A DNA stretch of 64,000 nt from Escherichia virus TH47, in the sequence record MT446416.1. One strand, given 5' to 3'. The notes beneath the pieces were generated by a model. The model made no database searches and had not been told where the DNA came from. It saw only the letters and a program-made list of their open reading frames with translations. This document shows positions 6,038 to 42,109 of this stretch, piece after piece; within the stretch, counting starts at the first letter, position 1; the number at the start of each line of letters is the position of its first letter. Made by a program: the position numbers and the translations under genes.

Positions 6038-6480
6038 TACAAATCCCCTGTACTTAAATATTCACATGCTCCCCAGTCAAGAAAGAATGGATCGAAATTC
6101 AATTCCTTAAAGTACCACAACACAACCAAGGAATCAAGCATTTCTTGGTTAAAAATAAGACTCTGTTGGAAGTAATACTCTTCAGTACCCCACGGGCCGT
6201 CAAGTACCCCGAAGTCAATAGGTGTATTTGATGTGTCGAAAGTAATCTTAGTACCTGGAATATATACAAAAAAACTAGTATATTGACTACATGAAGAGTA
6301 CTGTATAGTATTGTCTTTATCATGGCCCATAAGTAAAATATCATCAGAGTATGTCTTTATACCTGATAGATAATACTCATTACCAAATGCACTTACTTTA
6401 TCACCATAGAAACCACTTTTTATGTTATCGTGGAAGTGATGTATTTTGTGGGCCAGTTTAAGTGCACTTGCTAAACTCAT
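6037..6480 (-). CDS. FamA paralog, function unknown
   Basis: N-term MSLASALKLAHK; motif EEYYFQQSLIFNQE. Confidence 0.6.
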   Translation of the reverse strand: MSLASALKLAHKIHHFHDNIKSGFYGDKVSAFGNEYYLSGIKTYSDDILLMGHDKDNTIQYSSCSQYTSFFVYIPGTKITFDTSNTPIDFGVLDGPWGTEEYYFQQSLIFNQEMLDSLVVLWYFKELNFDPFFLDWGACEYLSTGDL

Positions 6481-6947
6481 ATATCCTCTTTAATAACTCG
6501 TAGTAGATCCAAGTCCAGATAGAAGCTAGGACAATCGGTATTATTAAAGTACCACAGAATGACAAGCTTGTCAAGCACATATTCCTCGTAGATAGTATTC
6601 TGCTGGAAGTAGAACTCTTCACTTCCCCAGTCATTATCCAGTACTGAATACGGAAGATGTTTTTCTGCTGCACCAGTTATAATGTCAGTATATTGTATTA
6701 AAATATCAGCATCACGACAGAAGCACATGTAATTATCTTCCAGATTAACATCACACCCAGTGAGTGTTGTTTCAGAAGAATCTAAGTTTTCTTCGTACAT
6801 GTGAATGTACTCACTACTGTCATCGTATATCATTCGACAATAAGCTTTACCTTCCTTGAATAGATACCCATTGAGTCGATTGAGTACTATTTCCTTTTTA
6901 CATAAATCAATTAACTTAGCAATTTCTAATGCTCTTGCAAAACTCAT
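6477..6947 (-). CDS. FamA paralog, function unknown
   Basis: N-term MSFARALEIAKL; motif EEFYFQQNTIYEE. Confidence 0.6.
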   Translation of the reverse strand: MSFARALEIAKLIDLCKKEIVLNRLNGYLFKEGKAYCRMIYDDSSEYIHMYEENLDSSETTLTGCDVNLEDNYMCFCRDADILIQYTDIITGAAEKHLPYSVLDNDWGSEEFYFQQNTIYEEYVLDKLVILWYFNNTDCPSFYLDLDLLRVIKEDI

Positions 6948-9885: not shown

Positions 9886-10397
9886 AATCCTATTTCCTTT
9901 AAATCTTCCAAAAATGTTTCATAATCACTTAAGGAAAAAAAGATATCCGTATCGATGTTCGCATCTAATACATTATACAAATTCTGCATCTGTAACACAT
10001 CAGGAGCATCAATCAAAGATTGCTGAAAATAGGCAGCTTCATCTTCCAATATATCTCTGAATGTTCTCTCTCGTACTCTGTGGTGTACTGAACCGAACAA
10101 TGTATTATCCTTGAGCATTGGTAGGTATCGGATGTACATGTGTTCTCTTAGCTCAGAACTGATGGAACCCCTGAACTGTAACACGTATTCGAAGCACATA
10201 GCCACATCTTGAAGATAATTAGCACTGTAATTATTGCTGTAAACAATCTTATGACTTCTGAACTCATCATCATTCCTGAACCAATTGTCACCTACTTTTG
10301 TGTACTTATGACTAAGCAATCCACCCTCTAACGCTTTGATGATCTTCAAAATGTTGTACCCATACTCATATGATGTATTGTACTTGTGCTGATACAT
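9882..10397 (-). CDS. FamA paralog, function unknown
   Basis: motif DEAAYFQQSLIDAPD; start at internal ATG 10395-10397 preceded by GAGG; track N-terminus is Cys-rich low complexity. Confidence 0.5.
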   Translation of the reverse strand: MYQHKYNTSYEYGYNILKIIKALEGGLLSHKYTKVGDNWFRNDDEFRSHKIVYSNNYSANYLQDVAMCFEYVLQFRGSISSELREHMYIRYLPMLKDNTLFGSVHHRVRERTFRDILEDEAAYFQQSLIDAPDVLQMQNLYNVLDANIDTDIFFSLSDYETFLEDLKEIGL

Positions 10398-10413
10398 ATG
10401 TGCCTCATCTACC

Positions 10414-10608
10414 TCATTTGGTGTTAAAATATTCACTGAAATGATTATAACACAAAAGCACCACGATGTTAAGCACTCTGTTGTCAAAATCATCTTGTGA
10501 TGCAGGATGCAATGACGCATTGATGTTAAAATTCACTATATCATTGTGGAATTGGTATGTGAACAAATCAAACTTCGTATGCCTTTGTTGGATATCATAA
10601 GCGTTCAT
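10414..10608 (-). CDS. hypothetical small protein
   Basis: 64-aa ORF starting 2 nt after stop of upstream gene. Confidence 0.35.
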   Translation of the reverse strand: MNAYDIQQRHTKFDLFTYQFHNDIVNFNINASLHPASQDDFDNRVLNIVVLLCYNHFSEYFNTK

Positions 10609-10609
10609 A

Positions 10610-11218
10610 TTATATATTCAACCCTTGAATGCAGGAAATAAATTCTTTGTATACATTTTCAGGTAAAGCTCTACTACCATAAAGAACACTAAATTCAGGT
10701 AACATATTCGAAATCTCTTTCGCTAAATTTATTTCATCCCTGAACATTTGCACAGGCATGATATCCTGTACCAATGATAACTGAAAGAAAAATGATTCAA
10801 TATCTTCATGTATCTCTGAATTTAAATAAATCTCTTCTGGAAACTCTTCTGTACTGTAATAATAAAATACGTCAATTCTTTTATCATTATTATTCACAAG
10901 AGGTAAATTTCTTTCGTCTCTCTTATTAATATTTGTTTTCCATGACTCAATGTTATTCGGAACCCAAAACTCATAAGGTGTCTTCTCTCCTGAAATATTA
11001 TCCAGCTTCAATCCATAATATTCACCTTCTCCGTACTTTTGCTTCAAAACAATACCTGCACTACTAATGTTTACAATGTACGGATCAACAATCCCCTCTG
11101 CGGTAAAAGGAATATTTAACTCTGAACCTTCAGGGTACTTAGCATTGAATGCATCTAATGCTTTACTTAGCACTGGAATTGCACTTGTACTGTACTTCAT
11201 TAATTGGTCTATGTTCAT
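10610..11218 (-). CDS. FamA paralog, function unknown
   Basis: motif ESFFFQLSLVQDIM. Confidence 0.6.
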   Translation of the reverse strand: MNIDQLMKYSTSAIPVLSKALDAFNAKYPEGSELNIPFTAEGIVDPYIVNISSAGIVLKQKYGEGEYYGLKLDNISGEKTPYEFWVPNNIESWKTNINKRDERNLPLVNNNDKRIDVFYYYSTEEFPEEIYLNSEIHEDIESFFFQLSLVQDIMPVQMFRDEINLAKEISNMLPEFSVLYGSRALPENVYKEFISCIQGLNI

Positions 11219-22547: not shown

Positions 22548-22759
22548 AGTTTGCTCTTAATGTATTTCTTGAGTGCATTTATATACACATTCAAGAAATG
22601 CTCCTGATAGTCTGTTCCCAAGAATGCACCCAATAGTATATCATTTTCCAATACCTCGGCTAAGTTTAAATCAGAAGTCTCTTCATATACTATGAGGATT
22701 TCAAGTTGTCTGGCAGCAACGCGTTCGGTATATTGATGTGAGTTTGTAATGATATTCAT
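22544..22759 (-). CDS. FamB small protein
   Basis: motif FLGTDYQEH; ATGA overlap. Confidence 0.55.
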   Translation of the reverse strand: MNIITNSHQYTERVAARQLEILIVYEETSDLNLAEVLENDILLGAFLGTDYQEHFLNVYINALKKYIKSKL

Positions 22760-22967
22760 AGTTTACTCTTAATGTGGTTCTTGAGTGCAAATAAGTATTC
22801 CCCTACATAATACTCCTGAAAGTCTGTATCCAAAAATGCACCCATGAGTAAATCCTTCTCCATTGCCCTTGATAAGTTAAGGTCTACGCTTGAAAGGTAT
22901 ATCAGTAAGATTTCAGCCTGTGCCGAATTGAAACGTATCTTATATTCTTCTGGTGTTAAAAAATCAT
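22756..22967 (-). pseudogene. FamB member with frameshift after start codon (T6 homopolymer)
   Basis: ATG-ATT-TTT-TAA at 22956-22967 (minus); remaining frame ...ITPEEYKIRFNSAQAEILLIYLSSVDLNLSRAMEKDLLMGAFLDTDFQEYYVGEYLFALKNHIKSKL is a clear FamB protein without an in-frame start. Confidence 0.45.
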
Positions 22968-23170
22968 AGTTTACTCTTTATATCTTTTATTAAATGTAAA
23001 ATCCAATCATTAACAAAACTTTCTTGGAAGTTGGTTCCCAGTCCAGCCATCATCCACCACTCCGATAGAATAAACTTTTTTTCATCCCTAGATAACTCAT
23101 CTGGTATATATATATTCTTTCTATATTCGATCATAAGATTATATAGTTGAAATTGTGTGATAATTTTCAT
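22964..23170 (-). CDS. FamB small protein
   Basis: motif GLGTNFQES. Confidence 0.55.
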   Translation of the reverse strand: MKIITQFQLYNLMIEYRKNIYIPDELSRDEKKFILSEWWMMAGLGTNFQESFVNDWILHLIKDIKSKL

Positions 23171-23364
23171 AGTTTACCCGTTATATCTTCAATTAAATAT
23201 GAAATCCAATCCTTGACATACCTTTCCTGAAAGTTAGTTCCAATGAATAGTGCCATAACCAATTCACGCTTATAGGCCATACCACGTTCATGTGACTTAT
23301 ACATTATCATAGCCATGTTATTGATAAGTCTTTCGTGATGTTCTGCTTGAGTTAAAATACGCAT
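23167..23364 (-). CDS. FamB small protein (first gene of the array)
   Basis: motif FIGTNFQER; preceded by 250-bp intergenic region. Confidence 0.55.
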   Translation of the reverse strand: MRILTQAEHHERLINNMAMIMYKSHERGMAYKRELVMALFIGTNFQERYVKDWISYLIEDITGKL

Positions 23365-23613
23365 AGGGACTCCATTAAAAATAATATCAATCCTATAATA
23401 TACGATTCGTATAAAAAGTCAATAACATTTTATTAGTAATACCCCTTTATCGAAGTCGCTAAGGTTACCCGCAGTTTAGCCCCCTACGCATTTTGCCATA
23501 GTCCAATCCCTTTTTATTCATAAAAGTCAAGGGATTACCTATGCATTTTTTTAACGCTGAAGTTTAAAAATGCCTTGACTTTTTTATGATTCAGTACTAA
23601 ATCCTTTTACGCA

Positions 23614-23823
23614 TTAATCCTTCGTTACGCTTACGATTATCTGTGTATCCCCATAGTCCTGCCATACTTCCACGCCAGCCGCCGACCTGGTTAGTCGTGC
23701 TGTCATCTGCTTAATGGTCTTAGGCTTTAGTGGAACCTGTTGCAGTACTGTACGCATGGCACTATCGACGTTATCATGTACGCCTGCAATAGTACCTAGA
23801 ACGCTGTATACTGTATAGATCAT
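23614..23823 (-). CDS. hypothetical protein
   Basis: 69 aa; AGGAG 9 nt upstream of ATG. Confidence 0.5.
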   Translation of the reverse strand: MIYTVYSVLGTIAGVHDNVDSAMRTVLQQVPLKPKTIKQMTARLTRSAAGVEVWQDYGDTQIIVSVTKD

Positions 23824-23891
23824 GTGTATGTACTCCTGATATAGTTAAGGCCGCTACAAGGCGGCCTATGATGTTTGATGATGTGTAACGC

Positions 23892-24293
23892 TTACAACCC
23901 TAAGATAGTACGTGCTTCGTTACGTTCCTTAGTTTGCTGCATGATGTAAGCTAACTGGTCCTTGCTAATGTATCCCTTGTCCATAGCTTCACGGATAGAT
24001 ACATCATAAGCACCGAACCCCGTGCGAACGATACGCACATCATTCAGGTTAGTGTTATATATACCGCCGAGATCAACGGATTCGAATACTGCATCAACTG
24101 TATATTCGTTGTTACCGTCATTGAAGTTTTCAATCTCAATATTACGGGACACGGCCCAACGTTTACAGCTACCGATAATGCGGCAATATTCCGGTTGCAT
24201 ATGACCATTACTTACAGCGTGCTCAAGGCCAGCTTTACCAAAAGTCCGGGCCAGTACTAAAACGTCAGCGTAAGAAGTGATAGTGAAAGTCAT
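23892..24293 (-). CDS. hypothetical protein
   Basis: start MTFTITSYADV at 24291-24293 after AGGAG; track N-extension MYNVLHREG is translation of the promoter/stem-loop cassette. Confidence 0.55.
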   Translation of the reverse strand: MTFTITSYADVLVLARTFGKAGLEHAVSNGHMQPEYCRIIGSCKRWAVSRNIEIENFNDGNNEYTVDAVFESVDLGGIYNTNLNDVRIVRTGFGAYDVSIREAMDKGYISKDQLAYIMQQTKERNEARTILGL

Positions 24294-24860: not shown

Positions 24861-24965
24861 ATTAACTATATATTTTAGATACACCTATGCACCCGGTGGG
24901 CTAGTTTTTGTCTATGCGTATATAATAGCAAAGGGACTTACCGGAGTCAATCCCTTTTTTATTCT
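24861..24965. repeat. ~100-nt conserved intergenic element, copy 1 (TATAAT...ATGCACCCGGTGGGCTAG...hairpin+T-run)
   Basis: near-identical copies at 25966-26066, 28698-28800, 32948-33055. Confidence 0.55.
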
Positions 24966-24967
24966 TT

Positions 24968-25225
24968 TTATGAAATATCTTCGATGTAGTCGGCCCATTT
25001 CATTTTTTCAGTACTGTCAATGGCTACCGGATTATTTGGATCAAACCATTCACCATTACCGCAATACATACCCACGGCTACGGTTTTATAGCCATCCTGT
25101 GCCGTATTCCATGACATTGCACGATAGATATGGCCTTTAATTGGTGTTAGTACTGGTAACGTTTTATGGTCTTCTACGTAGGCCATAGCTTGAGGATTTA
25201 CCCGATATTGTGTGAACTGTTCCAT
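24968..25225 (-). CDS. hypothetical protein
   Basis: 85 aa. Confidence 0.5.
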   Translation of the reverse strand: MEQFTQYRVNPQAMAYVEDHKTLPVLTPIKGHIYRAMSWNTAQDGYKTVAVGMYCGNGEWFDPNNPVAIDSTEKMKWADYIEDIS

Positions 25226-25865: not shown

Positions 25866-25928
25866 TCCTGGACTTGAGGGGAAACCATTTCCCCCTCTCG
25901 ATGTAAAACATTATACGCGAATTGCGAT
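25866..25928 (-). promoter_or_regulatory. sigma70-like promoter (TTGCAT-16-TATAAT) followed by palindromic stem-loop GGGGAAAnnnTTTCCCC and RBS
   Basis: -35 at 25922-25927, -10 at 25900-25905, stem-loop ~25868-25885 (minus-strand sense). Confidence 0.55.
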
Positions 25929-26073
25929 AGTATGCAAGTACTTTTTTAAAATAGTTTTCAGTACTGAATACTTATATAATAGATACATTTATGCACCCGG
26001 TGGGTTAGATTGTTTTCATGCATATATAATAGCAAAGGGACTGACCTGAGTCAATCCATTTTTTTAATCTTTT

Positions 26074-26658
26074 TTATCGTGTTATAGTTACGGCTTTTAC
26101 ATCACGCTTTTTATAGTACTGATTCCAGATATTGCGGGTTAAACCGTAATCAAGTACTTTAATCAAGCCGTTACGATCCTGGCCGATATTCTGTTTTCTG
26201 ATATCTCTTATAGTTAGTGTTGATAAGGTATCATCAACGTGTTGTAGTGCATCAGCAAAGCGGTGCTGGCGTTCAATGGTATTACGTTTAATATTGCACT
26301 TTAATTCGTTGCACGCGTTAACGTGCTTTACGCTGCCTTTGCTTGCAGTACTCAAACGATCCATAACAATAAACATATTATCAGGATCGCTTAAATGCAT
26401 ATGCACCTTAGCAAAGTACTGTTTCATTTGAGGGCGGTCATAATCTAAAAAATTCCATACCTTACATTCAGTTTCATTTTGTTCTACACCCGCATCACAA
26501 TTCGCGACCTTGATCACTAACCGATCATTTAAAGCGAATACTATACGGGAAGAACCCGCACCGATGATCTCAAGACCAGCTAACCGACAAGCTGAAAGGA
26601 TCTCTTTGTTGGTTTCCATTTCTGACAGTGTACGGATAAATTTAGTATAATTACGCAT
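26074..26658 (-). CDS. protein-kinase-like protein (Ser/Thr kinase fold)
   Basis: Gly-rich loop IIGAGSSRIV, VIKV lysine, catalytic-loop-like IRDIRKQN, DFG-like LDYG; start MRNYTKF at 26656-26658 after AAGGAG. Confidence 0.5.
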   Translation of the reverse strand: MRNYTKFIRTLSEMETNKEILSACRLAGLEIIGAGSSRIVFALNDRLVIKVANCDAGVEQNETECKVWNFLDYDRPQMKQYFAKVHMHLSDPDNMFIVMDRLSTASKGSVKHVNACNELKCNIKRNTIERQHRFADALQHVDDTLSTLTIRDIRKQNIGQDRNGLIKVLDYGLTRNIWNQYYKKRDVKAVTITR

Positions 26659-26705
26659 TGCATTTACTCCTTGAATTGATGAAACTATATTACAGTACTT
26701 TACTA

Positions 26706-26933
26706 TCAATGGCAACTACTTTTTTTAACATTAACGGCGTGGATCACTTCCTTAGTGTTTTTAGTACTGAATACTTTTGCCGCTCCTTGTTCGACCGTGA
26801 TGCGATAGCGACCATTAACATCAACCATATTAATAAAGTCCGGCGTGCTGAATGGTGTTGTTTTACATTTCAGTACGGTTAACAGTTCCACCAGCGATGT
26901 AGTTTATTTGATACGTTTTTCTAAAGTAATCAT
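26706..26933 (-). pseudogene. small ORF with in-frame TAA at codon 10
   Basis: ATG 26931-26933 with RBS-like context; TAA at 26904-26906 in frame; downstream frame continues ...TTSLVELLTVLKCKTTPF (track ORF 26706-26891). Confidence 0.3.
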
Positions 26934-26987
26934 TTTGTTTTCCCCCGTGTTGGTATATATACATAGTACTAAAACATTTGAGTACTG

Positions 26988-27242
26988 TCAACGTGAAATT
27001 CTTTTAATAGCAGTATTATACTGCTGGTGCTCATACAAACTAATTTTACCAGTACTCTCGATAACGATTCTATTGTTAGTGTCTACATCGATAACACGCA
27101 GTTTACCGTTGCTTAACTTCCTAGGTAATATGTTACCATTAATAAACTCATTAGCAAGCTGTACGGCCTTTGTGATGATTCTCTGAGGGGCTTTATAGTG
27201 TACCCGCAAGATATTATCTTTAGATAGTTGTACCTTAATCAT
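26988..27242 (-). CDS. hypothetical protein
   Basis: 84 aa; AGGAT RBS. Confidence 0.5.
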   Translation of the reverse strand: MIKVQLSKDNILRVHYKAPQRIITKAVQLANEFINGNILPRKLSNGKLRVIDVDTNNRIVIESTGKISLYEHQQYNTAIKRISR

Positions 27243-27700: not shown

Positions 27701-27795
27701 GGTATACATCCTATTAGTTAAGTTAGTACTACAAGCGAGAGTCTATTATAAAGTACTATCTGTGTAATGTCAAATAGTACTTTAAATGGATTCTA

Positions 27796-28119
27796 TTACA
27801 TGTCTTTCTTACGTTTTACATCGTAGTAGCGAACTGTTATTTCTTTGTTAATCTCTTTTTCGATGCGGTGAATAACTTTTTCTTTCGGGTTGAAACCTAT
27901 AACGGTTTCTTTAATGATCTCCAAACCAGTGTATTCGCCTTGCGTACCGTAACCGTATGTAAAGGTTTCGTGTCCCAGGTCTTCCCAGCGGTCGCCAATT
28001 AACGCAGACACGTAGCAAGAGTGGTAAGTATTGCCGTTCCGATCAGTCCAGCGATTAACTTTAATGTCAAAGGAGGTTACAATTTTCAGTTCTACTTTCT
28101 GGGTAAGGATCATAGCCAT
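27796..28119 (-). CDS. hypothetical protein (paralog of 34364-34708)
   Basis: shared YGYG motif and C-terminal DVKRKKD[ML]. Confidence 0.5.
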   Translation of the reverse strand: MAMILTQKVELKIVTSFDIKVNRWTDRNGNTYHSCYVSALIGDRWEDLGHETFTYGYGTQGEYTGLEIIKETVIGFNPKEKVIHRIEKEINKEITVRYYDVKRKKDM

Positions 28120-28206
28120 TTTTATTTCTCTCTTTTAGTTAGGAGGGGAACCATTCCCCTCACTTGATGTAATCTATTATACAGTACTAAGATACTTTGT
28201 CAATAC

Positions 28207-28482
28207 TTAAGTATTGTAAATGTCGTGAATAGTGATAAAGTTTTTACGACCGTAAACCTGTAAATCGGTATCAATGTAGTGTTTATCTAGTACATCCTCG
28301 ACGCTTAACGCGGTGTCGTGGATATCTTCGTAGAATTGAGGATCTACAATCTTGCTTAAGTCATCCGGTGTTAACTTATCGTTAAGCCATTGCACCGCCT
28401 GGATATCTGCTTCACGTTTCCAGTCTTGCAGGTTAGTAGTCAGTACTTGCTCGATTTCGTTAGCTGTCAGTAGAATCCGCAT
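28207..28482 (-). CDS. hypothetical protein
   Basis: 91 aa; preceded by TTGACA-16-TATAAT. Confidence 0.5.
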   Translation of the reverse strand: MRILLTANEIEQVLTTNLQDWKREADIQAVQWLNDKLTPDDLSKIVDPQFYEDIHDTALSVEDVLDKHYIDTDLQVYGRKNFITIHDIYNT

Positions 28483-28536
28483 TTTAATGTTTCCTTATCA
28501 GTGGTTGATGTAAGTATTATACTCGTTTACTTTCTA

Positions 28537-28620
28537 TTGTCAATCTTTTTATCAGGGGAGTTTTTCGTATGTCTTACTCCTGGACTACTTAACGGGGTTA
28601 CTTGTTTCGTTCCCCCGTCC
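28537..28620. repeat. ~80-nt conserved element (ATCAGGGGAGTTTTTCGTATG...CCCCGTCCTGATG), copy 1 of 2
   Basis: second copy at 38537-38622; internal inverted repeats. Confidence 0.5.
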
Positions 28621-28942
28621 TGATGTAAAACATTATACTTGATTTTAAGTACAATGCAAGTACTTTTTAAAAATAGTTTTCAGTACTAGCCACCAGCAAA
28701 TAATAGATACATTTATGCACCCTGTGGGCTGATTTGTTTCTATGCGTATATAATAGCAAAGGGACTTACCGGAGTCAATCCCTTTTTTAATTATTTTTAA
28801 ACTTGTTTTGGGTTGCGATATGTGATAGCGTTCGGGTACATTTGTTTAATGTTATTCCATGCCTGGTTAACATTATAACCACTTGAGCGAATCAGTTGGT
28901 TACTACCGACACCTTGAAACACTACTTCGAATAAGAATTCTT

Positions 28943-29777: not shown

Positions 29778-30134
29778 TTACGATAAAATCATGATAGGAT
29801 ATTCACTATCGATCAGTACTTCGAATCCAAAACCTTCGTACCATTCTTTAAGATTAAAGGCGTTATCTTCTCCCGTATCGCATTCTAAAATGATACAATC
29901 GGAATCATCAGCGGCATCAATAAAGGCATTCATTAATTCGTTACCTTCACCATTGCCCCGACTATCAGGATCAACATAAAGAGAATCAATAAACGCTACA
30001 CGGTCATAATCAAGATCCGGTGCAATGATTCCACGTTTTTCAAACCAGTACTGCAATTGTGCTACTTTGCCCTGTACTTGATAGCCAGTGATCTCGCCAT
30101 TGTCAGTAGTACGCGTGATATGTTGTATTCCCAT
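29778..30134 (-). CDS. possible GNAT-type N-acetyltransferase
   Basis: 118 aa; segment VDPDSRGNGEGNELMNAFIDAA resembles acetyl-CoA-binding motif A; weak. Confidence 0.35.
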   Translation of the reverse strand: MGIQHITRTTDNGEITGYQVQGKVAQLQYWFEKRGIIAPDLDYDRVAFIDSLYVDPDSRGNGEGNELMNAFIDAADDSDCIILECDTGEDNAFNLKEWYEGFGFEVLIDSEYPIMILS

Positions 30135-30197
30135 GATTTCTATCCTCAGTTAAGATATAAAATATTATACACTATCTTTCAGTACTGTCAATACTTT

Positions 30198-30455
30198 TTA
30201 TCTCATAGATCTATGCCAACAATTACGCGGGGGACGTTTAAAAGTACTATCATGATCCTCCTGGCAAGTTATGCAGTACATGCACCCTACAACGGCCTGG
30301 CGTCGATTCTCAGGGATTAAATCACCGCAATCATGACAATGTGTTAGTGATTCTCTTTGTGCGTTAATTTGCTTTCTAGCGTGGTTTACGGCGGCCTGAA
30401 TCACTGCGTTAATCTCGTCTTGTTCGGCCCCGTCTTTCGCGAATCCTACTGCCAT
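30198..30455 (-). CDS. TraR/DksA-family C4 zinc-finger protein
   Basis: CHDCGDLIPENRRQAVVGCMYCITCQ closely parallels TraR CEACGNPIPEARRKIFPGVTLCVECQ. Confidence 0.75.
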   Translation of the reverse strand: MAVGFAKDGAEQDEINAVIQAAVNHARKQINAQRESLTHCHDCGDLIPENRRQAVVGCMYCITCQEDHDSTFKRPPRNCWHRSMR

Positions 30456-31237: not shown

Positions 31238-31320
31238 CTCTCTTAGGTTAAGTTAACTACTGTTTATAAAACTTATTATACAGTACTATCAATCTATGTC
31301 AATAGTACTGGTAATATATT

Positions 31321-31608: not shown

Positions 31609-31636
31609 ATTATACAGTACTATCAATCTTTGTCAA
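31609..31636 (-). promoter_or_regulatory. consensus sigma70 promoter TTGACA-16-TATAAT
   Basis: -35 31631-31636, -10 31609-31614 on minus strand, upstream of 31321-31572. Confidence 0.55.
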
Positions 31637-31868: not shown

Positions 31869-31962
31869 TTTGTTTTCTCTTTGTTAGTGGGGAGAATCAT
31901 TTCTCCCCTTGATGTAACTTATTATACAGTACTATAATCTATTGTCAAACTATTTTTTAATA

Positions 31963-36881: not shown

Positions 36882-37122
36882 TTGATTATCCTTAGTTACC
36901 AGGGGAACCGTTCCCCCTATGTAAAACATTATACGCGTTTAAAAACTATTATCAAGTACTTTAATATAAAAGTATTTGAAAAATAATTGTTGACAACTGC
37001 ATCCAGTACTGGCATAATACCTACATAAAGACAAAACAGTCTCCAACCCACCGGGTGCATAGATCCGTCTATTAAATGATTCAGTACTGCAAAATAAAGG
37101 GGATCAATTGATCCCCTCTGTA

Positions 37123-37344
37123 TTACTTAGTAAGGTATAAACAGAAGTCACCTTTATTTGCTACGCCGCCAGTGTAACGCGATGAATAGTTAGAAATATC
37201 TTGTACTTCTGCTATTACCAGTGTATCATCATTCATTTCGTCGCAGAAGCAAACGGCTGGATCTTTTACGCCGATATTGTCGGCATGTTCCCGCATAGAT
37301 TTAACCAGTGCTTCCAGTTGAGAAAGAGTAGTGATATTAGCCAT
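37123..37344 (-). CDS. hypothetical small protein
   Basis: start MANITTLSQLEAL at 37342-37344. Confidence 0.45.
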   Translation of the reverse strand: MANITTLSQLEALVKSMREHADNIGVKDPAVCFCDEMNDDTLVIAEVQDISNYSSRYTGGVANKGDFCLYLTK

Positions 37345-37534
37345 TGTATTTTCCTCATTACCAGGGAGAACCATTTCTCCCCTCTATGTAAACTATTATA
37401 CAGTACTGGAAACTAATTGCAAGTACTTAATGGTAAGATCCGCAACGGTTGCAGTAGTTTTATTTGTTCGATCATGATGCTTACTCCTGGTTAAAGGCGG
37501 GAACCATTCCCCGCCATTGTCACAGTACTGAATA

Positions 37535-37774
37535 TTACATTCCAACCATTGCAGCACGGATCGCAGTAGTGCTATACTTGAATCCGTCCGGCGTTGTAGT
37601 AGTACCGTTGGCTTTTAATCTGCGGTACATACATTCCGCTGCAATATCTTTCGTTTTACTTTGAGCGATGCAATTTTGAGCAATCCGGTACAATGATTCA
37701 TCGTTATTGATCCAAAGGCTTACATTCCAATGAGTTTTGTTTTTGTGTCCGTTGTAAGTTTTAGTACTAGCCAT
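37535..37774 (-). CDS. hypothetical protein (paralog of 39563-39790)
   Basis: shared NGHKN-HWNVSLWINNDESLY...AAMVGM. Confidence 0.5.
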   Translation of the reverse strand: MASTKTYNGHKNKTHWNVSLWINNDESLYRIAQNCIAQSKTKDIAAECMYRRLKANGTTTTPDGFKYSTTAIRAAMVGM

Positions 37775-37863
37775 TTTTTAATCCTCTTATATAGTGGGGA
37801 ACTATTCCCCACCTGATGTAAAGTATTATACGCTTTTAAACTTAGTTTGCAAGTACTTTTTAA

Positions 37864-38475
37864 TTAATATGCGATTGATTCTACTACGCCATCAATAACA
37901 TTGAATTGATATTCGTTACCCTCAATCAGTGCCGTAATGTTTTCAGTAGTGAATTGATCCTTATATGCATTCTCTAAATCACGGTAAAACTTGCGTGACA
38001 ATTCACGAATAGTATCAGTTAGTAGTTTCTCAAGCTCATTAACTAACGTTTCTTGTTTTGAGGTTAAATCAGTGTAAGCCGATTCAATGTACCCGCTTAC
38101 AGTGTTCTCATGCGAGTAATGGGAGTGAGATCGCTTTACACTCATCGCCAAATCATCTTCATTCAGCAGGTGACGGATTGAGCGATACTTAGTTAATGCT
38201 CTTACCTTGCGTAAAAACTTCACTGCGTCAACGTGGTCAGTACTGATTGATGCACCGTCACCCTGGGACCAAAAACCACTGAATTGTATTTCAGCGTCAT
38301 TAATGCCATATTCTGGTAGTACTGTTTCTTTATAGTATTCAATTTCACTTTCAGAAAAATAATCGTCGTTTGTGTTTTTTTCACGTTCCCGAACCAGTTC
38401 GATAGCTGACGTTTTTTGTTCTGCGTTCAATTCAGAAAAATCCATAACATAAGTAGTAGTAGTGATAGTTTTCAT
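37864..38475 (-). CDS. hypothetical protein
   Basis: 203 aa; GAGGG RBS. Confidence 0.55.
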   Translation of the reverse strand: MKTITTTTYVMDFSELNAEQKTSAIELVREREKNTNDDYFSESEIEYYKETVLPEYGINDAEIQFSGFWSQGDGASISTDHVDAVKFLRKVRALTKYRSIRHLLNEDDLAMSVKRSHSHYSHENTVSGYIESAYTDLTSKQETLVNELEKLLTDTIRELSRKFYRDLENAYKDQFTTENITALIEGNEYQFNVIDGVVESIAY

Positions 38476-38899
38476 TTTGTAACCCTCATTCAGTAGTTGA
38501 TGTAAGTATTATACGCTTTTAAAAACAATTGTCAAACTATTTTATCAGGGGAGTTTTTCGTATGCCTTACTCCTGGGCTACTCAACGGGGAGTTACTTAT
38601 TTCGTTCCCCGTCCTGATGTAATACATTATACGCCGTTAAACATAGTATGCAAGTACTTTTTAAAATAGTTTTCAGTACTGAATAGTAAAAAGGTATTGA
38701 CAGCACTATCCAGTACTGGCATAATATACCCCATGACAACAGCTAACCCACCGGGTGCACAATTGTAACTGTACTAAACTACTTTTTCTATAGATACACT
38801 CCCGCACCCCGTGGGCCAAATTGTTCGTTTCAATAGATACATTATGCCAGTACTGACAAAATAAGTCAATACTGGCAATTGTAAAGATTTGTAAACTAC

Positions 38900-39130
38900 T
38901 TATACTGCAATCGCGTCCAGGCTATAATAATAATAAGTGCCGTATTGGTGTACTTTATTACCTTTTATTTCAGTACTGAATGAATCCGAACGATTAGCAT
39001 ATGATGTTAATTTAAAGTACTTTGCTTTACTAATACGTTGCCATACACCGCAGATCCGCTGTAAGTAAGTAGTTTTATTAGTGGTAGTATCTTTTACGGT
39101 TTTAACTTCGGTCATATACATATTAGCCAT
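38900..39130 (-). CDS. hypothetical protein
   Basis: start MANMYMTEV at 39128-39130. Confidence 0.45.
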   Translation of the reverse strand: MANMYMTEVKTVKDTTTNKTTYLQRICGVWQRISKAKYFKLTSYANRSDSFSTEIKGNKVHQYGTYYYYSLDAIAV

Positions 39131-39217
39131 TTTTTTAATCCTCTTATGTAGTGGGGAAGTATTCCCCATCTGATATAAAGTATTATACGCTTTTAAACTT
39201 AGTATGCAAGTACTTTT

Positions 39218-39481
39218 TTATAGTACTGCAATCTTTTTAGTACGGTACACGGTAACGCGATTGCCCTTGCGGTCGTGCTTTATTTCTACTACTCGCCGCG
39301 ATACACTATCAGGACTTTTTAACGCCGCCAACCAGTACTGTAAAGATCTGGCTTTACTTTGCTTTACTACCGCCCAACGTTTACCACGTTCCGATTGTCC
39401 GCCCATATCTTTAAACGTCGCCCCGTCCAGACGTGCGGCGATCCGTGCTTGTTCACGCGTCACAAAGTACATAATATTCAT
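39218..39481 (-). CDS. hypothetical protein (paralog of 27305-27700)
   Basis: 87 aa. Confidence 0.5.
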   Translation of the reverse strand: MNIMYFVTREQARIAARLDGATFKDMGGQSERGKRWAVVKQSKARSLQYWLAALKSPDSVSRRVVEIKHDRKGNRVTVYRTKKIAVL

Positions 39482-39562
39482 GCTGTTACCCCATCGTTGA
39501 CGTATAAAAGAAATCTATTATAAAGTACTATCACCGTGCAATAGTACTTTAAATATATTCTA

Positions 39563-39790
39563 TTACATTCCAACCATCGCCGCACGCACGCTTGATTTGC
39601 TATAACGTGCCCCATCAGGCGTGTGAGTACCTAAAAGGCGTAACATCCGCTCAACCGCTTTATCTCGCGTGTTGGTGCTTTTAATACTTTCCAGGGCCAA
39701 TTGGTACAGTGATTCATCGTTATTGATCCAAAGGCTTACATTCCAATGGTTGTAGTTTTTATGGCCGTTGAAAGTTTTAGTAGTAGTCAT
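39563..39790 (-). CDS. hypothetical protein (paralog of 37535-37774)
   Basis: 75 aa. Confidence 0.5.
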   Translation of the reverse strand: MTTTKTFNGHKNYNHWNVSLWINNDESLYQLALESIKSTNTRDKAVERMLRLLGTHTPDGARYSKSSVRAAMVGM

Positions 39791-39883
39791 TTTTAATTCC
39801 TCTTAAGTGCAGCGGGAACCATTCCCGCTCTCGATGTAATACATTATACGCTATTTGATAGTACTGTCAAACTAATTTTTAAC

Positions 39884-40246
39884 TTATTCGTAAATTTTGC
39901 CACTGTCAGCCCATACCAGGAAACGAGGCATATTATCCCATGCATCTTGTTTTAAATTTAAACCGTGTAATACTTCTGTACTTTCCATTCCTGGTACTGG
40001 TTTACTATACACCGCGAACATTTCACCCATATACTGATAAGCCATCGTTAAATCACTGGCGATCATCTTATGGATCATCGCATCAAGCATCACGGTAGCG
40101 GCGTATTGTTCACGCTTAAGCGGCAACATTGCAATAAGTCCACGATAAGCTGAAATGTGAATTTTTACCGTTTCTGCCGGAAGATCTTTCATCTCGTCGC
40201 GGAAGTTAACCAGGTTAGCAATAATTTTATTGATTTGTGTCGCCAT
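39884..40246 (-). CDS. hypothetical protein (first gene downstream of the 2-kb control region)
   Basis: 120 aa; preceded by TTGCAT-N16-TATAAT and stem-loop. Confidence 0.55.
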   Translation of the reverse strand: MATQINKIIANLVNFRDEMKDLPAETVKIHISAYRGLIAMLPLKREQYAATVMLDAMIHKMIASDLTMAYQYMGEMFAVYSKPVPGMESTEVLHGLNLKQDAWDNMPRFLVWADSGKIYE

Positions 40247-40380
40247 CGTTTTTAATCTCTCTTAAAGTGCAGCGGGAACCATTCCCGCTCTCGATGTAAT
40301 ACATTATACGCCGTTAAACATAGTATGCAAGTACTTTCTACAAATACTTTTAAAATAGTTTTCTTTCTATATAGGGGAAC

Positions 40381-40436
40381 TATCTTTCAGTACTATCTTT
40401 CAGTACTATCATTCAGTACTATCATTCAGTACTGAA
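40381..40436. repeat. four tandem 12-13-bp repeats (TTCAGTACTATCWT)
   Basis: ctttcagtactat x2, cattcagtactat x2 read directly. Confidence 0.7.
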
Positions 40437-40596
40437 TCAATCCACTAAATCATCCCTATACCCCGTAAAACGGCCTCAGACGCATTCTAACGCATTAATA
40501 CACCTAAGCTATACATTTGCACCATTCCAATCATTCCAGGGCTTTACGGGCCGTTGAAACGCGTTAAATTATTTTCAATTATTTTGTTTTTAGGTA

Positions 40597-40624
40597 TTGA
40601 CTTGATCCTGAAAAAGCGTATAAT
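40597..40624 (+). promoter_or_regulatory. plus-strand sigma70-like promoter TTGACT-16-TATAAT
   Basis: -35 40597-40602, -10 40619-40624; no convincing ORF downstream. Confidence 0.5.
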
Positions 40625-40937
40625 TACTACATAAGCCGGACACAAGGCACTAACCCACAGGGTGCGGAATTACGCCCAAAATTCAAGATATAAAAAAAGG
40701 ATACACTCCCGCACCCTAGCAGGTCAACGCACTTTCTCAGTACTGAAATATAGTACCATAGTACTTGCCAGGATAGCAAGCAAATTAATTAAAACTTTTT
40801 TGCTTCCAGGGTATTGCTTTATTTTTTCAGTACTGTATAATAGTTTCATCAAGTCGAGAAAGACTCAAGCCCACCGGGTGCATAGTTACGCCCAAAATTC
40901 AGTACTGAAAAAATTTTTAAAATATCTGTCCAGGCCG

Positions 40938-40966
40938 TTGACATTGCCCCCAGTTTATAAGATAAT
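40938..40966 (+). promoter_or_regulatory. plus-strand sigma70-like promoter TTGACA-17-GATAAT
   Basis: -35 40938-40943, -10 40961-40966; followed by palindromic GGGGAAnnnTCCCC hairpins and iteron-like repeats. Confidence 0.5.
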
Positions 40967-41175: not shown

Positions 41176-42109
41176 TTTACTTCCATACTTCTGGAGGTCT
41201 AGACATATCTACGTCCAAAATCCACCCAGGGTTACTACACCCAAAATCCGTCAGTACTATACCATAGATCTATCTTTTGAAAGGGAGTATTCAGTACTGC
41301 CATCATAGCCCTCACTATGTTACCCTAGGAGGATGAAGACTATCATGTAGTACTGAATACTGTTAGAGGGAATCCACCAGCTTGTGCTGGTGGCATAATG
41401 CTTTAGATTAAAATCAGTACTGACACCATTCTGTTAATATCAGTACTGTTATTACGATTTTCATATGAGGTTCAAAAAGATGTACCACCACAGGAGGAAC
41501 TATCTTTTCTGTACTGTCTCACGACAGGAGGTAGAGTAAATGAATTGTTCGCAGCAACTCATCTCTCTATGTAGAACATTATACAGTACTGAATCATAAT
41601 GTCAATAACTTTCTTTCACCATTCAGTACTGATATTCTTGAGAACTACCCGTCTACAAACATCATTATATCCCACAAATCATAAACGTCCCAACGTAAAT
41701 TTCAACTTTCGAAGATCCAACTTTTATTTCATAGGTACTCCAAAATTTTTAGGATCGAGATTTAGGATGGAGTACTAACCAACTTTTTGCTGGAGCCTCA
41801 AGGGGTAATTGAATTTTACCCCGAAGGGTAAAAGGGTAATTGAAATTAAGGTGAAAGTAATAATTCAGTACTAATCATTGCGTGATTACTTTTGATTACA
41901 TTTGATGTAATTTGCAAAATGGAAAAGGAGCTTGGAAACTAAAAAGTACGGTAGACTTCCTCTGCCTACTTAGTGGGATATCGACACCTTCAGTACTGAA
42001 TACTTTTGGGGCAGTACTGCTACGTTCTTGATTAAACGTGCACATTCCTGTACTCTATTACACTCTAGTACTCACTACTGATCAGTACTGATCACTACAG
42101 TGATTATAA

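Follow-up and report, generated by a model that had tools for sequence, protein, structure and literature searches.

A very small protein-kinase-like protein of family PHROG 4301 encoded by Escherichia virus TH47

Introduction

T7 kinase (T7K, gp0.7) is an early, promiscuous phage enzyme whose gene is transcribed by the host RNA polymerase. Most proteins of host and phage are among its substrates, and several defence systems are weakened by it; the study reporting this leaves the role of divergent jumbo-phage kinases open (PMC13645617). Here we analyze a 64,000-nucleotide (nt) stretch of DNA of Escherichia virus TH47 (sequence record MT446416.1; the whole stretch is referred to as the window) and, within it, a coding sequence (CDS) on the minus strand (26074..26658, stop codon included) that was defined by its open reading frame (ORF) and by the annotation of orthologues. 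Its product is a minimal protein-kinase-like protein of 194 amino acids (aa), a member of family PHROG 4301.

The kinase prediction as such is already public and is not new. Relatives of this protein are annotated as "serine/threonine-protein kinase" in phages Turkey3, Turkey5 and fEgEco12, as "protein kinase domain-containing protein" in ph0011 and PBECO4 (UniProt L7TKF0), and as "putative protein kinase" in K64-1, Munch, Muenster, SE_PL and fENko-Kae01. The orthologue of phage Sharanji (gp063) is mentioned as a putative protein kinase in the paper on that phage. PHROG 4301 includes the putative protein kinases of phages RaK2, K64-1, Munch, Muenster, PBECO4 and Sharanji (gp063), and orthologues of the TH47 protein agree with it in length and position.

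Gene and motif organization

The ORF at 26074-26658 had been proposed as a gene in a preliminary description of the sequence, and this is borne out by a strong ribosome-binding site and by a 585-nt CDS shared by its relatives. The start codon ATG occupies positions 26658-26656 and the stop codon positions 26074-26076 of the minus strand, with a Shine-Dalgarno sequence (AGGAG, 26667..26671, minus strand) located 8 nt 5′ of the ATG. A longer, in-frame version starting with TTG at 26715 was rejected, since the position of the Shine-Dalgarno sequence and the annotation of orthologues favour the ATG: all annotated relatives carry the same 585-nt CDS. Judged by the existence of orthologues with 91-98% identity and of distant homologues, the gene is clearly real.

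All four motifs named in the preliminary description were found in the order given there and at the positions expected from kinase profiles. The glycine-rich loop (G-loop) IGAGSSRIV (residues 32-40; 26539..26565, minus strand) lies between strands β1 and β2 of the structural model described below. It is followed by VIKV of strand β3 (residues 48-51; 26506-26517, minus strand), which contains Lys50. Conservation was assessed in a 94-sequence family alignment with identities down to 17-25%, in which Lys50 is invariant and forms part of a block of invariant columns that runs from VIKV through G57-x-x-Q60-N61-x-x-E64 into helix αC (26467..26517, minus strand; strand 47-52 and helix 55-73 in the model). 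The catalytic loop IRDIRKQN (residues 150-157; 26188..26211, minus strand) provides Asp152 and, at the D+5 position, Asn157. The motif LDYG (residues 169-172; 26143..26154, minus strand) resembles DFG of kinases and includes Asp170, the predicted Mg-binding residue. The spacing of these residues is kinase-like, with 5 residues from D152 to N157 and 13 from N157 to D170. Only 22 residues follow Gly172, and they form one short helix (175-182) with the conserved Tyr182.

Evidence for a kinase fold

A comparison with Pfam kinase profiles had been suggested in the preliminary description as a check of the kinase assignment. The best Pfam match of the protein is indeed Pkinase (E=0.0014, 18.5 bits), beginning at residue 46, which corresponds to profile position 26, but the score stays under the gathering threshold. 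With the kinase-like protein all Pfam and NCBIfam models stayed below their cut-offs, and NCBIfam gave nothing meaningful. PADLOC produced weak matches only, to the PD-T4-6 kinase, and these reflect general kinase similarity.

In a phmmer search of PDB sequences nearly all of the matches listed were protein kinases, with E-values of at least 0.013. In the PDB alignments D152, N157 and D170 coincide with the HRD-Asp, the catalytic-loop Asn and the DFG-Asp, respectively (MKK4, MKK7, PKA), the match of D170 being seen with MKK4 and PKA. A profile built from the 14 closest relatives matched MKK4 at E=1e-4 and aligned MKK7 over residues 29-182, from the G-loop to past the DFG motif, with IGAGSSRIV on the GxGxxG loop of MKK7. 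Among 50 distant PHROG 4301 members, five have a Pkinase match at E<0.01 (best 5.7e-6) and two have a weak ABC1/UbiB match. When the family was compared by hhalign with PKA alone, with T7K alone and with a T7K alignment, no significant homology was obtained and only the G-loop/Lys or the catalytic-loop/DFG region was aligned. For the Muenster homologue (37% identity), the annotators of that phage recorded a plant kinase (6J5T_M) as an HHpred match with a probability of 99.9%. The match to kinases exceeds chance.

A template-free AlphaFold2 model computed from the 94-sequence alignment has a mean predicted local distance difference test score (pLDDT) of 93.3 and a predicted template modelling score (pTM) of 0.89. 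It replaced a run with the 14 close homologues alone, which was unusable (pLDDT 52). The model contains a bilobal kinase fold, composed of a β-rich N-lobe with helix αC, a hinge, and a helical C-lobe bearing the catalytic loop. In the N-lobe there are helices 4-12 and 17-26, strands β1-β2 around the G-loop, β3 with Lys50, and a long αC (55-73) with Glu64, the predicted αC partner of Lys50. Downstream, the hinge strand (96-100) is followed by helices 109-120 (αD) and 130-145 (αE), the catalytic loop, β7/β8, D170-Y-G and helix 175-182. A Foldseek comparison with the PDB gave MEK1, OSR1 and CDK2 at E=1e-4.

A protein-kinase-like fold, as put forward in the preliminary description, is thus supported by the alignments and the model: the template-free prediction is kinase-like, the catalytic Lys and Asp align and are conserved, and the HHpred result for Muenster points the same way. 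Nothing in the profile searches assigned the protein to a non-kinase fold or put the catalytic Asp and Lys positions out of alignment.

Family PHROG 4301

The hidden Markov model (HMM) of PHROG 4301, a family listed as "unknown function", matches the TH47 protein over residues 3-188 (E=8.1e-42), and it was matched by all 50 of the 50 distant relatives tested. An exhaustive profile search returned 2,072 clusters (50% identity) at E<=1e-3, including 244 at E<=1e-10, mostly of 180-260 aa. The names of the relatives' clusters carried no annotation, and a Pfam search of ten longer members revealed no informative fused domain, only one weak ParB-like/VapB match.

Eleven residues, i.e. G35, S36, R38, K50, A52, G57, Q60, N61, E64, D152 and G159, are invariant in the 94 sequences. 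D170 and G172 are retained in 92 of them and Y182 in 88; the motif reads DYG or DFG in 78, and 72 have a polar residue (N, S, D or E) at the D+5 position. The G-loop takes the form G33-x-G35-S-S-R38, in which the third Gly of canonical kinases is replaced by the invariant Arg. The family signature can be written as L-G-x-G-S-S-R-[IV]-V-[FY] ... V-L-K-I-A-x-N-x-K-G-x-A-Q-N-x-x-E ..., with G-D-[LI]-x3-[NSD] ... D-Y-G-[LF]-T-x-[DE]-V-x3-[YH]-Y as its C-terminal part. Since the residues for nucleotide binding and phosphotransfer are all strongly constrained, this pattern argues for an active enzyme rather than a pseudokinase.

Proteins of the family end approximately 12-25 residues beyond the DFG-like motif, and the distance from the DFG-like Asp to the C-terminus is below 30 residues in 60 of 92 members. 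Two metagenomic proteins, P0021 (693 aa) and P0023 (923 aa), consist of 3-4 full tandem modules, each ending after DYG-x-x-x-V-x-x-x-Y. Because 60 of 92 members are equally short and the tandem copies each end just past DYG, the short form is, on the evidence of the alignment, native and not a truncation peculiar to the TH47 phage. Including P0029 and P0031, four such polypeptides have 2-4 complete tandem modules joined by short acidic linkers, with Lys, Asp and Asp retained in every copy.

Orthologues with 91-98% identity are present in 34 Asteriusvirus records, and the TH47 copy differs from them in 2-9% of residues and in its flanking small genes. Homologues with 29-41% identity occur in Alcyoneusvirus (RaK2, K64-1, Muenster), in Salmonella phage Munch, and in jumbo phages of Erwinia, Xanthomonas and Yersinia. 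Prokaryotic genomes (one for each of 185,579 species) were scanned with sequence patterns. The close-clade scan found no close relative, a result obtained with a single peptide pattern that does not prove absence from cellular genomes, and the main-clade scan found two members only, both on short contigs (5-8 kb) of metagenome-assembled genomes. The family matches for which a genomic context was available are phage contigs, many of them >100 kb. Within the limits of a pattern-based scan, PHROG 4301 looks essentially phage-confined.

Genomic context and expression timing

The 3 kb around the gene are approximately 92% identical at the DNA level to the Asteriusvirus jumbo phages Turkey3, G17, Sharanji, ph0011, PBECO4 and 121Q, which infect Escherichia/Salmonella and whose genomes measure about 350 kb. 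Small genes follow one another here over a long distance, every one of them on the minus strand. In the window, σ70-type promoters agreeing with at least 11 of 12 consensus positions number 30 on the minus strand, including 12 perfect TTGACA-N16-18-TATAAT sites, versus five on the plus strand, the chance expectation being approximately one per strand by our estimate from the consensus probability. This density marks what would be a large early region read by the host RNA polymerase, and a similar promoter pattern in the related phage CBB was likewise interpreted as an early host-takeover region (PMC5259590).

The nearest good σ70-like promoter of the kinase-like gene, TTGACA-17-TACTAT (10/12), was predicted by the consensus scan at 26963..26991 and a perfect one (12/12) further upstream at 27745-27773, both on the minus strand. 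A terminator-like hairpin (26038..26057, minus strand), recognized by pattern match only and with a weak T-run, lies 17 nt past the stop codon and overlaps a promoter-like site at 26026-26054. The minus-strand promoters fall within 600-42000; besides that at 27745-27773, examples are located at 28176-28203, 28516-28543, 30164-30191, 31275-31302, 31609-31636, 31921-31948, 38508-38535, 39843-39870 and 41578-41605. Four of the five plus-strand promoter-like sites are clustered at 36990-40938.

In phage vB_Ec-M-J the orthologue lies inside an annotated direct terminal repeat (OQ718158.1, 1-21,525), as does the homologue of Muenster (MT708547.1, 1-20,030), and records that hold both terminal repeats have two copies of the gene. 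By analogy with OQ718158.1 and MT708547.1, the inner boundary of a terminal repeat may lie near 22700-23900 of the window. The gene organization shifts from tightly overlapping small genes at 19.8-22.8 kb to well-spaced genes with their own promoters above approximately 23.6 kb.

An upstream neighbour (26988..27242, minus strand) encodes an 84-aa protein with a ParE-like toxin domain (PF24732, E=3.4e-10, above the cut-off). A ParE_like gene (record L013, 4745-4996) is also found directly upstream of a kinase homologue with 51% identity, and in Muenster a gene annotated as "YafQ-like ribonuclease toxin" (record L015, 563-811) is located two genes upstream of the homologue. In three lineages, with kinases 37-51% identical to that of TH47, a RelE/ParE-type gene thus stands 0-1 genes upstream of the kinase-like gene. 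No antitoxin was identified for these ParE/RelE-like toxin genes.

The preliminary description also placed the gene among TraR-like and possible GNAT genes, which holds loosely: both are on the same strand, 3.1-3.8 kb upstream. They encode a 118-aa GNAT acetyltransferase (29778-30134, minus strand; PF00583, E=4.4e-9) and an 85-aa DksA/TraR C4 zinc-finger protein (30198-30455, minus strand; PF01258, E=2.6e-10). The two genes are adjacent, and their products probably modify host proteins and RNA polymerase early in infection. Together with the ParE-like protein, they are of types associated with manipulation of the host.

The gene just upstream of the kinase-like gene (26706-26891, minus strand) encodes 61 aa from a GTG start, versus 80 aa in Turkey3, and differs in its N-terminus and last residues, suggestive of a deletion junction and frameshift close to the gene end. 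Compared with Turkey3 (record L001), four stretches with small genes are absent (~290, 780, 215 and 170 bp), each bounded by repeats. Intergenic stretches of approximately 60-190 bp recur between gene junctions (24876-24970, 25874-25950, 26930-26991, 28113-28209 and 28610-28799). The pattern suggests a cassette-like gain and loss of early genes through recombination between repeated promoter/terminator spacers.

The distant family members have other surroundings. In L006, L007 and L008 (5717-8967) a distant member is found beside genes for an AAA_33/tRNA-ligase-CPD-like kinase, NUDIX, a T4 Rnl1 RNA ligase and HD_4, and in L011 another lies near KTI12/AAA_33 and RtcB genes (6348-6827 and 10135-10765). 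In L009, L010 and L012 the gene stands alone on the opposite strand, inserted between genes for a 5′-3′ exonuclease and dUTPase/RecA, i.e. in a replication module. No consistent partner gene was found across the neighbourhoods of the six lineages.

Proposed function and alternative explanations

We infer that the TH47 protein is catalytically active, is made early, acts on proteins and contributes to host takeover or anti-defence. Our preferred reading, to which we give a probability of roughly 55%, is that it is an autonomous, very small protein-kinase-like phosphotransferase with a T7K-like early role in host takeover or anti-defence. It is reasonable to regard it as such an effector because of the early σ70-promoter region, the terminal-repeat position in relatives and the analogy with the T7 kinase.

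In the proposed mechanism, the gene would be transcribed early by the host σ70 RNA polymerase from the terminal-repeat end of an Asteriusvirus-like jumbo genome. The product would hold adenosine triphosphate (ATP) and Mg between its lobes and transfer the γ-phosphate via Asp152. Its targets during takeover would most likely be host proteins, perhaps also phage proteins, phosphorylated in the manner of T7 gp0.7. The kinase would probably be unregulated and have little built-in substrate selectivity, since both the activation segment and the substrate-docking helices αF-αI are missing.

Several observations weigh against this proposal. The C-terminus is reached 24 residues past D170, so that the entire substrate-binding half of canonical kinases is missing, with no activation segment, APE motif or αF-αI (subdomains VIII-XI). 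The αF helix normally organizes the catalytic core of kinases, and in its absence catalytic activity may require a partner or a dimer. Across the wider family the catalytic motif is GD instead of the canonical HRD, and the D+2 Lys of Ser/Thr kinases is unconserved; such a motif resembles those of atypical and small-molecule kinases. The Pkinase score of 18.5 bits falls below the gathering cut-off of 31.7, and hhalign gave probabilities of 0.2% against T7K alone and 0.5% against a T7K alignment for the family alignment, i.e. no detectable homology. The genomic contexts of distant members are inconsistent, and no experimental report on any family member was found in the literature. Finally, OspG, described as a comparably minimal kinase, requires E2~ubiquitin, and SteC requires phosphorylation for activation (PMC13395416).

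In a bolder version, which we consider doubtful, the ultra-minimal kinases of PHROG 4301 would make up a second, independent lineage that is nearly phage-only and serves as a constitutive and promiscuous T7K-like anti-defence weapon, or else acts on a non-protein target (RNA or an immune signalling nucleotide). Its module would consist of the N-lobe and half of the C-lobe, would be autonomous and free of regulatory and docking elements, and would be arrayed 3-4 times in some phages, with a distribution over jumbo phages and many uncultured phages.

The missing activation segment and αF-αI would also fit a pseudokinase or an OspG-like kinase that depends on a partner, for which the nearby ParE/RelE-like protein is a candidate. 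Minimal kinases that need activation are known (PMC13395416), and a RelE/ParE-type gene occurs within 0-1 genes in the three lineages noted above. However, the set of Lys, Glu, Asp and Asp is strongly conserved across a very divergent family, which is atypical of pseudokinases. The position of the toxin gene may reflect common ancestry and inherited gene order of related jumbo phages, and distant members have no toxin-like neighbour. We regard this explanation as unlikely.

A kinase-fold enzyme acting on RNA, transfer RNA (tRNA) or other nucleic acid, as Ark1/ArkI do, might help to repair or modify RNA in the course of infection. In the Asteriusvirus clade the protein is strongly basic, with an isoelectric point (pI) of 9.2-9.8, and two distant members have RNA-repair neighbours: one lies directly upstream of the AAA_33/tRNA-ligase-CPD-like, NUDIX and T4 Rnl1 genes (L006-L008), the other near KTI12/AAA_33 and RtcB (L011). 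Such neighbours were seen in only two of the six lineages, though, whereas in the others the gene belongs to a replication module or is surrounded by small early genes; the pI of the family as a whole is mixed, with a median of 6.5, and the sequence-level signal is all towards protein kinases. An RNA-directed role is rated as quite improbable.

The x-G-D motif without a D+2 Lys, together with the weak ABC1/UbiB matches in two of 50 members, could be taken to indicate a small-molecule kinase of the aminoglycoside/choline-kinase or lipopolysaccharide-kinase type, whose substrate might be a metabolite or a sugar, a compound resembling an antibiotic, or a nucleotide signal. We consider this very unlikely: the His of the Brenner motif is absent (I-R-D here, x-G-D in the family), the 24 residues past the DFG-like Asp leave no room for a large substrate-binding subdomain, and no Pfam APH, choline-kinase or Kdo-kinase match was obtained at E<=10.

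A chance resemblance of an unrelated fold to kinases, which the weak single-sequence scores might suggest (Pfam E=0.0014, under the cut-off; best PDB phmmer E=0.013), is refuted to a practical standard by the exact coincidence of the motif residues with the invariant columns of the family, the kinase fold of the high-confidence template-free model and its structural matches, and the independent HHpred annotation at 99.9%.

In the literature we found no published account of the native ultra-minimal form, the GSSR and QN signatures, the family size, the near restriction to phages, the tandem arrays or the separation from T7K. If the TH47 protein is active, as the preferred reading of an autonomous phosphotransferase implies, it would be among the smallest natural protein kinases and would make it possible to examine how large a part of the kinase C-lobe is required for catalysis. 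It would also be a tractable candidate anti-defence factor in phages considered for Escherichia coli therapy.

Comparison with known kinases

Canonical Ser/Thr kinases (PF00069; MKK4/MKK7, PknB) provide the best sequence-level matches of the TH47 protein and share with it the N-lobe, Lys50 and Glu64, the catalytic Asp and Asn, the DFG-type Asp and the spacing between Asp, Asn and Asp. It differs from them in the Arg at the third Gly of the G-loop, in the sequence I-R-D-I-R-K (x-G-D in the family) with a variable D+2 position, and in the absence of subdomains VIII-XI. APH and choline kinases are characterized by the Brenner motif HxDxxxxN and a C-terminal helical substrate subdomain, neither of which was found in the TH47 protein.

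Among kinases of reduced size, SteC and OspG likewise have a kinase core with a depleted C-lobe. When the broad family profile was compared with the PDB, the N-lobe of SteC was the sole sequence match (E=0.0023), and this match was confined to profile positions 35-85. Unlike the TH47 protein, SteC retains αF/αG and a Ser in its activation segment, and both SteC and OspG are delivered by type III secretion and act as effectors in eukaryotic cells. The archaeal Ark1/ArkI proteins are equally small (173-216 aa) tRNA 2′-kinases, for which no sequence-level similarity was found. The same is true of the Rio/Bud32/Ark1 group, whose members are cellular and not phage proteins, with roles in tRNA, ribosome and KEOPS biology.

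By sequence, the TH47 protein does not belong with T7K: it has no match to phrog_2828, the T7K family (PF27024 in Pfam), at E<=1. The GSSR loop and the GxxQNxxE signature of PHROG 4301 differ from T7K, and D170-Y-G of TH47 stands at the position of D213-P-V, a motif proposed to lock the active state or to underlie the hyperactivity of T7K (PMC13645617). The C-terminal DNA-binding/shut-off domain of T7K is absent from the TH47 protein, whose kinase-like domain fills the 194 aa. According to PMC11895373, jumbo phages that have the orthologue of the TH47 gene (WNN14351.1) also possess a distinct T7K-like gene (WNN14432.1). In the window neither a second copy of the family nor a detectable T7 gp0.7 homologue was found, the T7K-like gene of Sharanji being undetected there. 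PHROG 4301 is a different family from T7K, one of approximately 2,000 clusters at 50% identity that accommodates its catalytic residues within about 190 residues.

In layout, by contrast, the two agree. K93, D195/N200 and D213 of T7K correspond to K50, D152/N157 and D170 of the TH47 protein, and the spacings are identical: 102 residues from Lys to Asp, 5 from Asp to Asn, 13 from Asn to Asp and 18 from Asp to Asp. Both share a minimal build of N-terminal helices, a G-loop, the VIKV Lys, D-x4-N and a DFG equivalent followed by approximately 25 residues. With the full-length model, Foldseek gave template modelling scores (TM-scores) of 0.56-0.59 to models of "protein kinase" proteins of T7-like phages, its top structural matches among those with an annotation, versus 0.46 for the best PDB kinase. 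This likeness in layout and fold is a resemblance and not family membership, and by analogy T7K gp0.7 would be the best functional counterpart of the TH47 protein among the kinases compared here.

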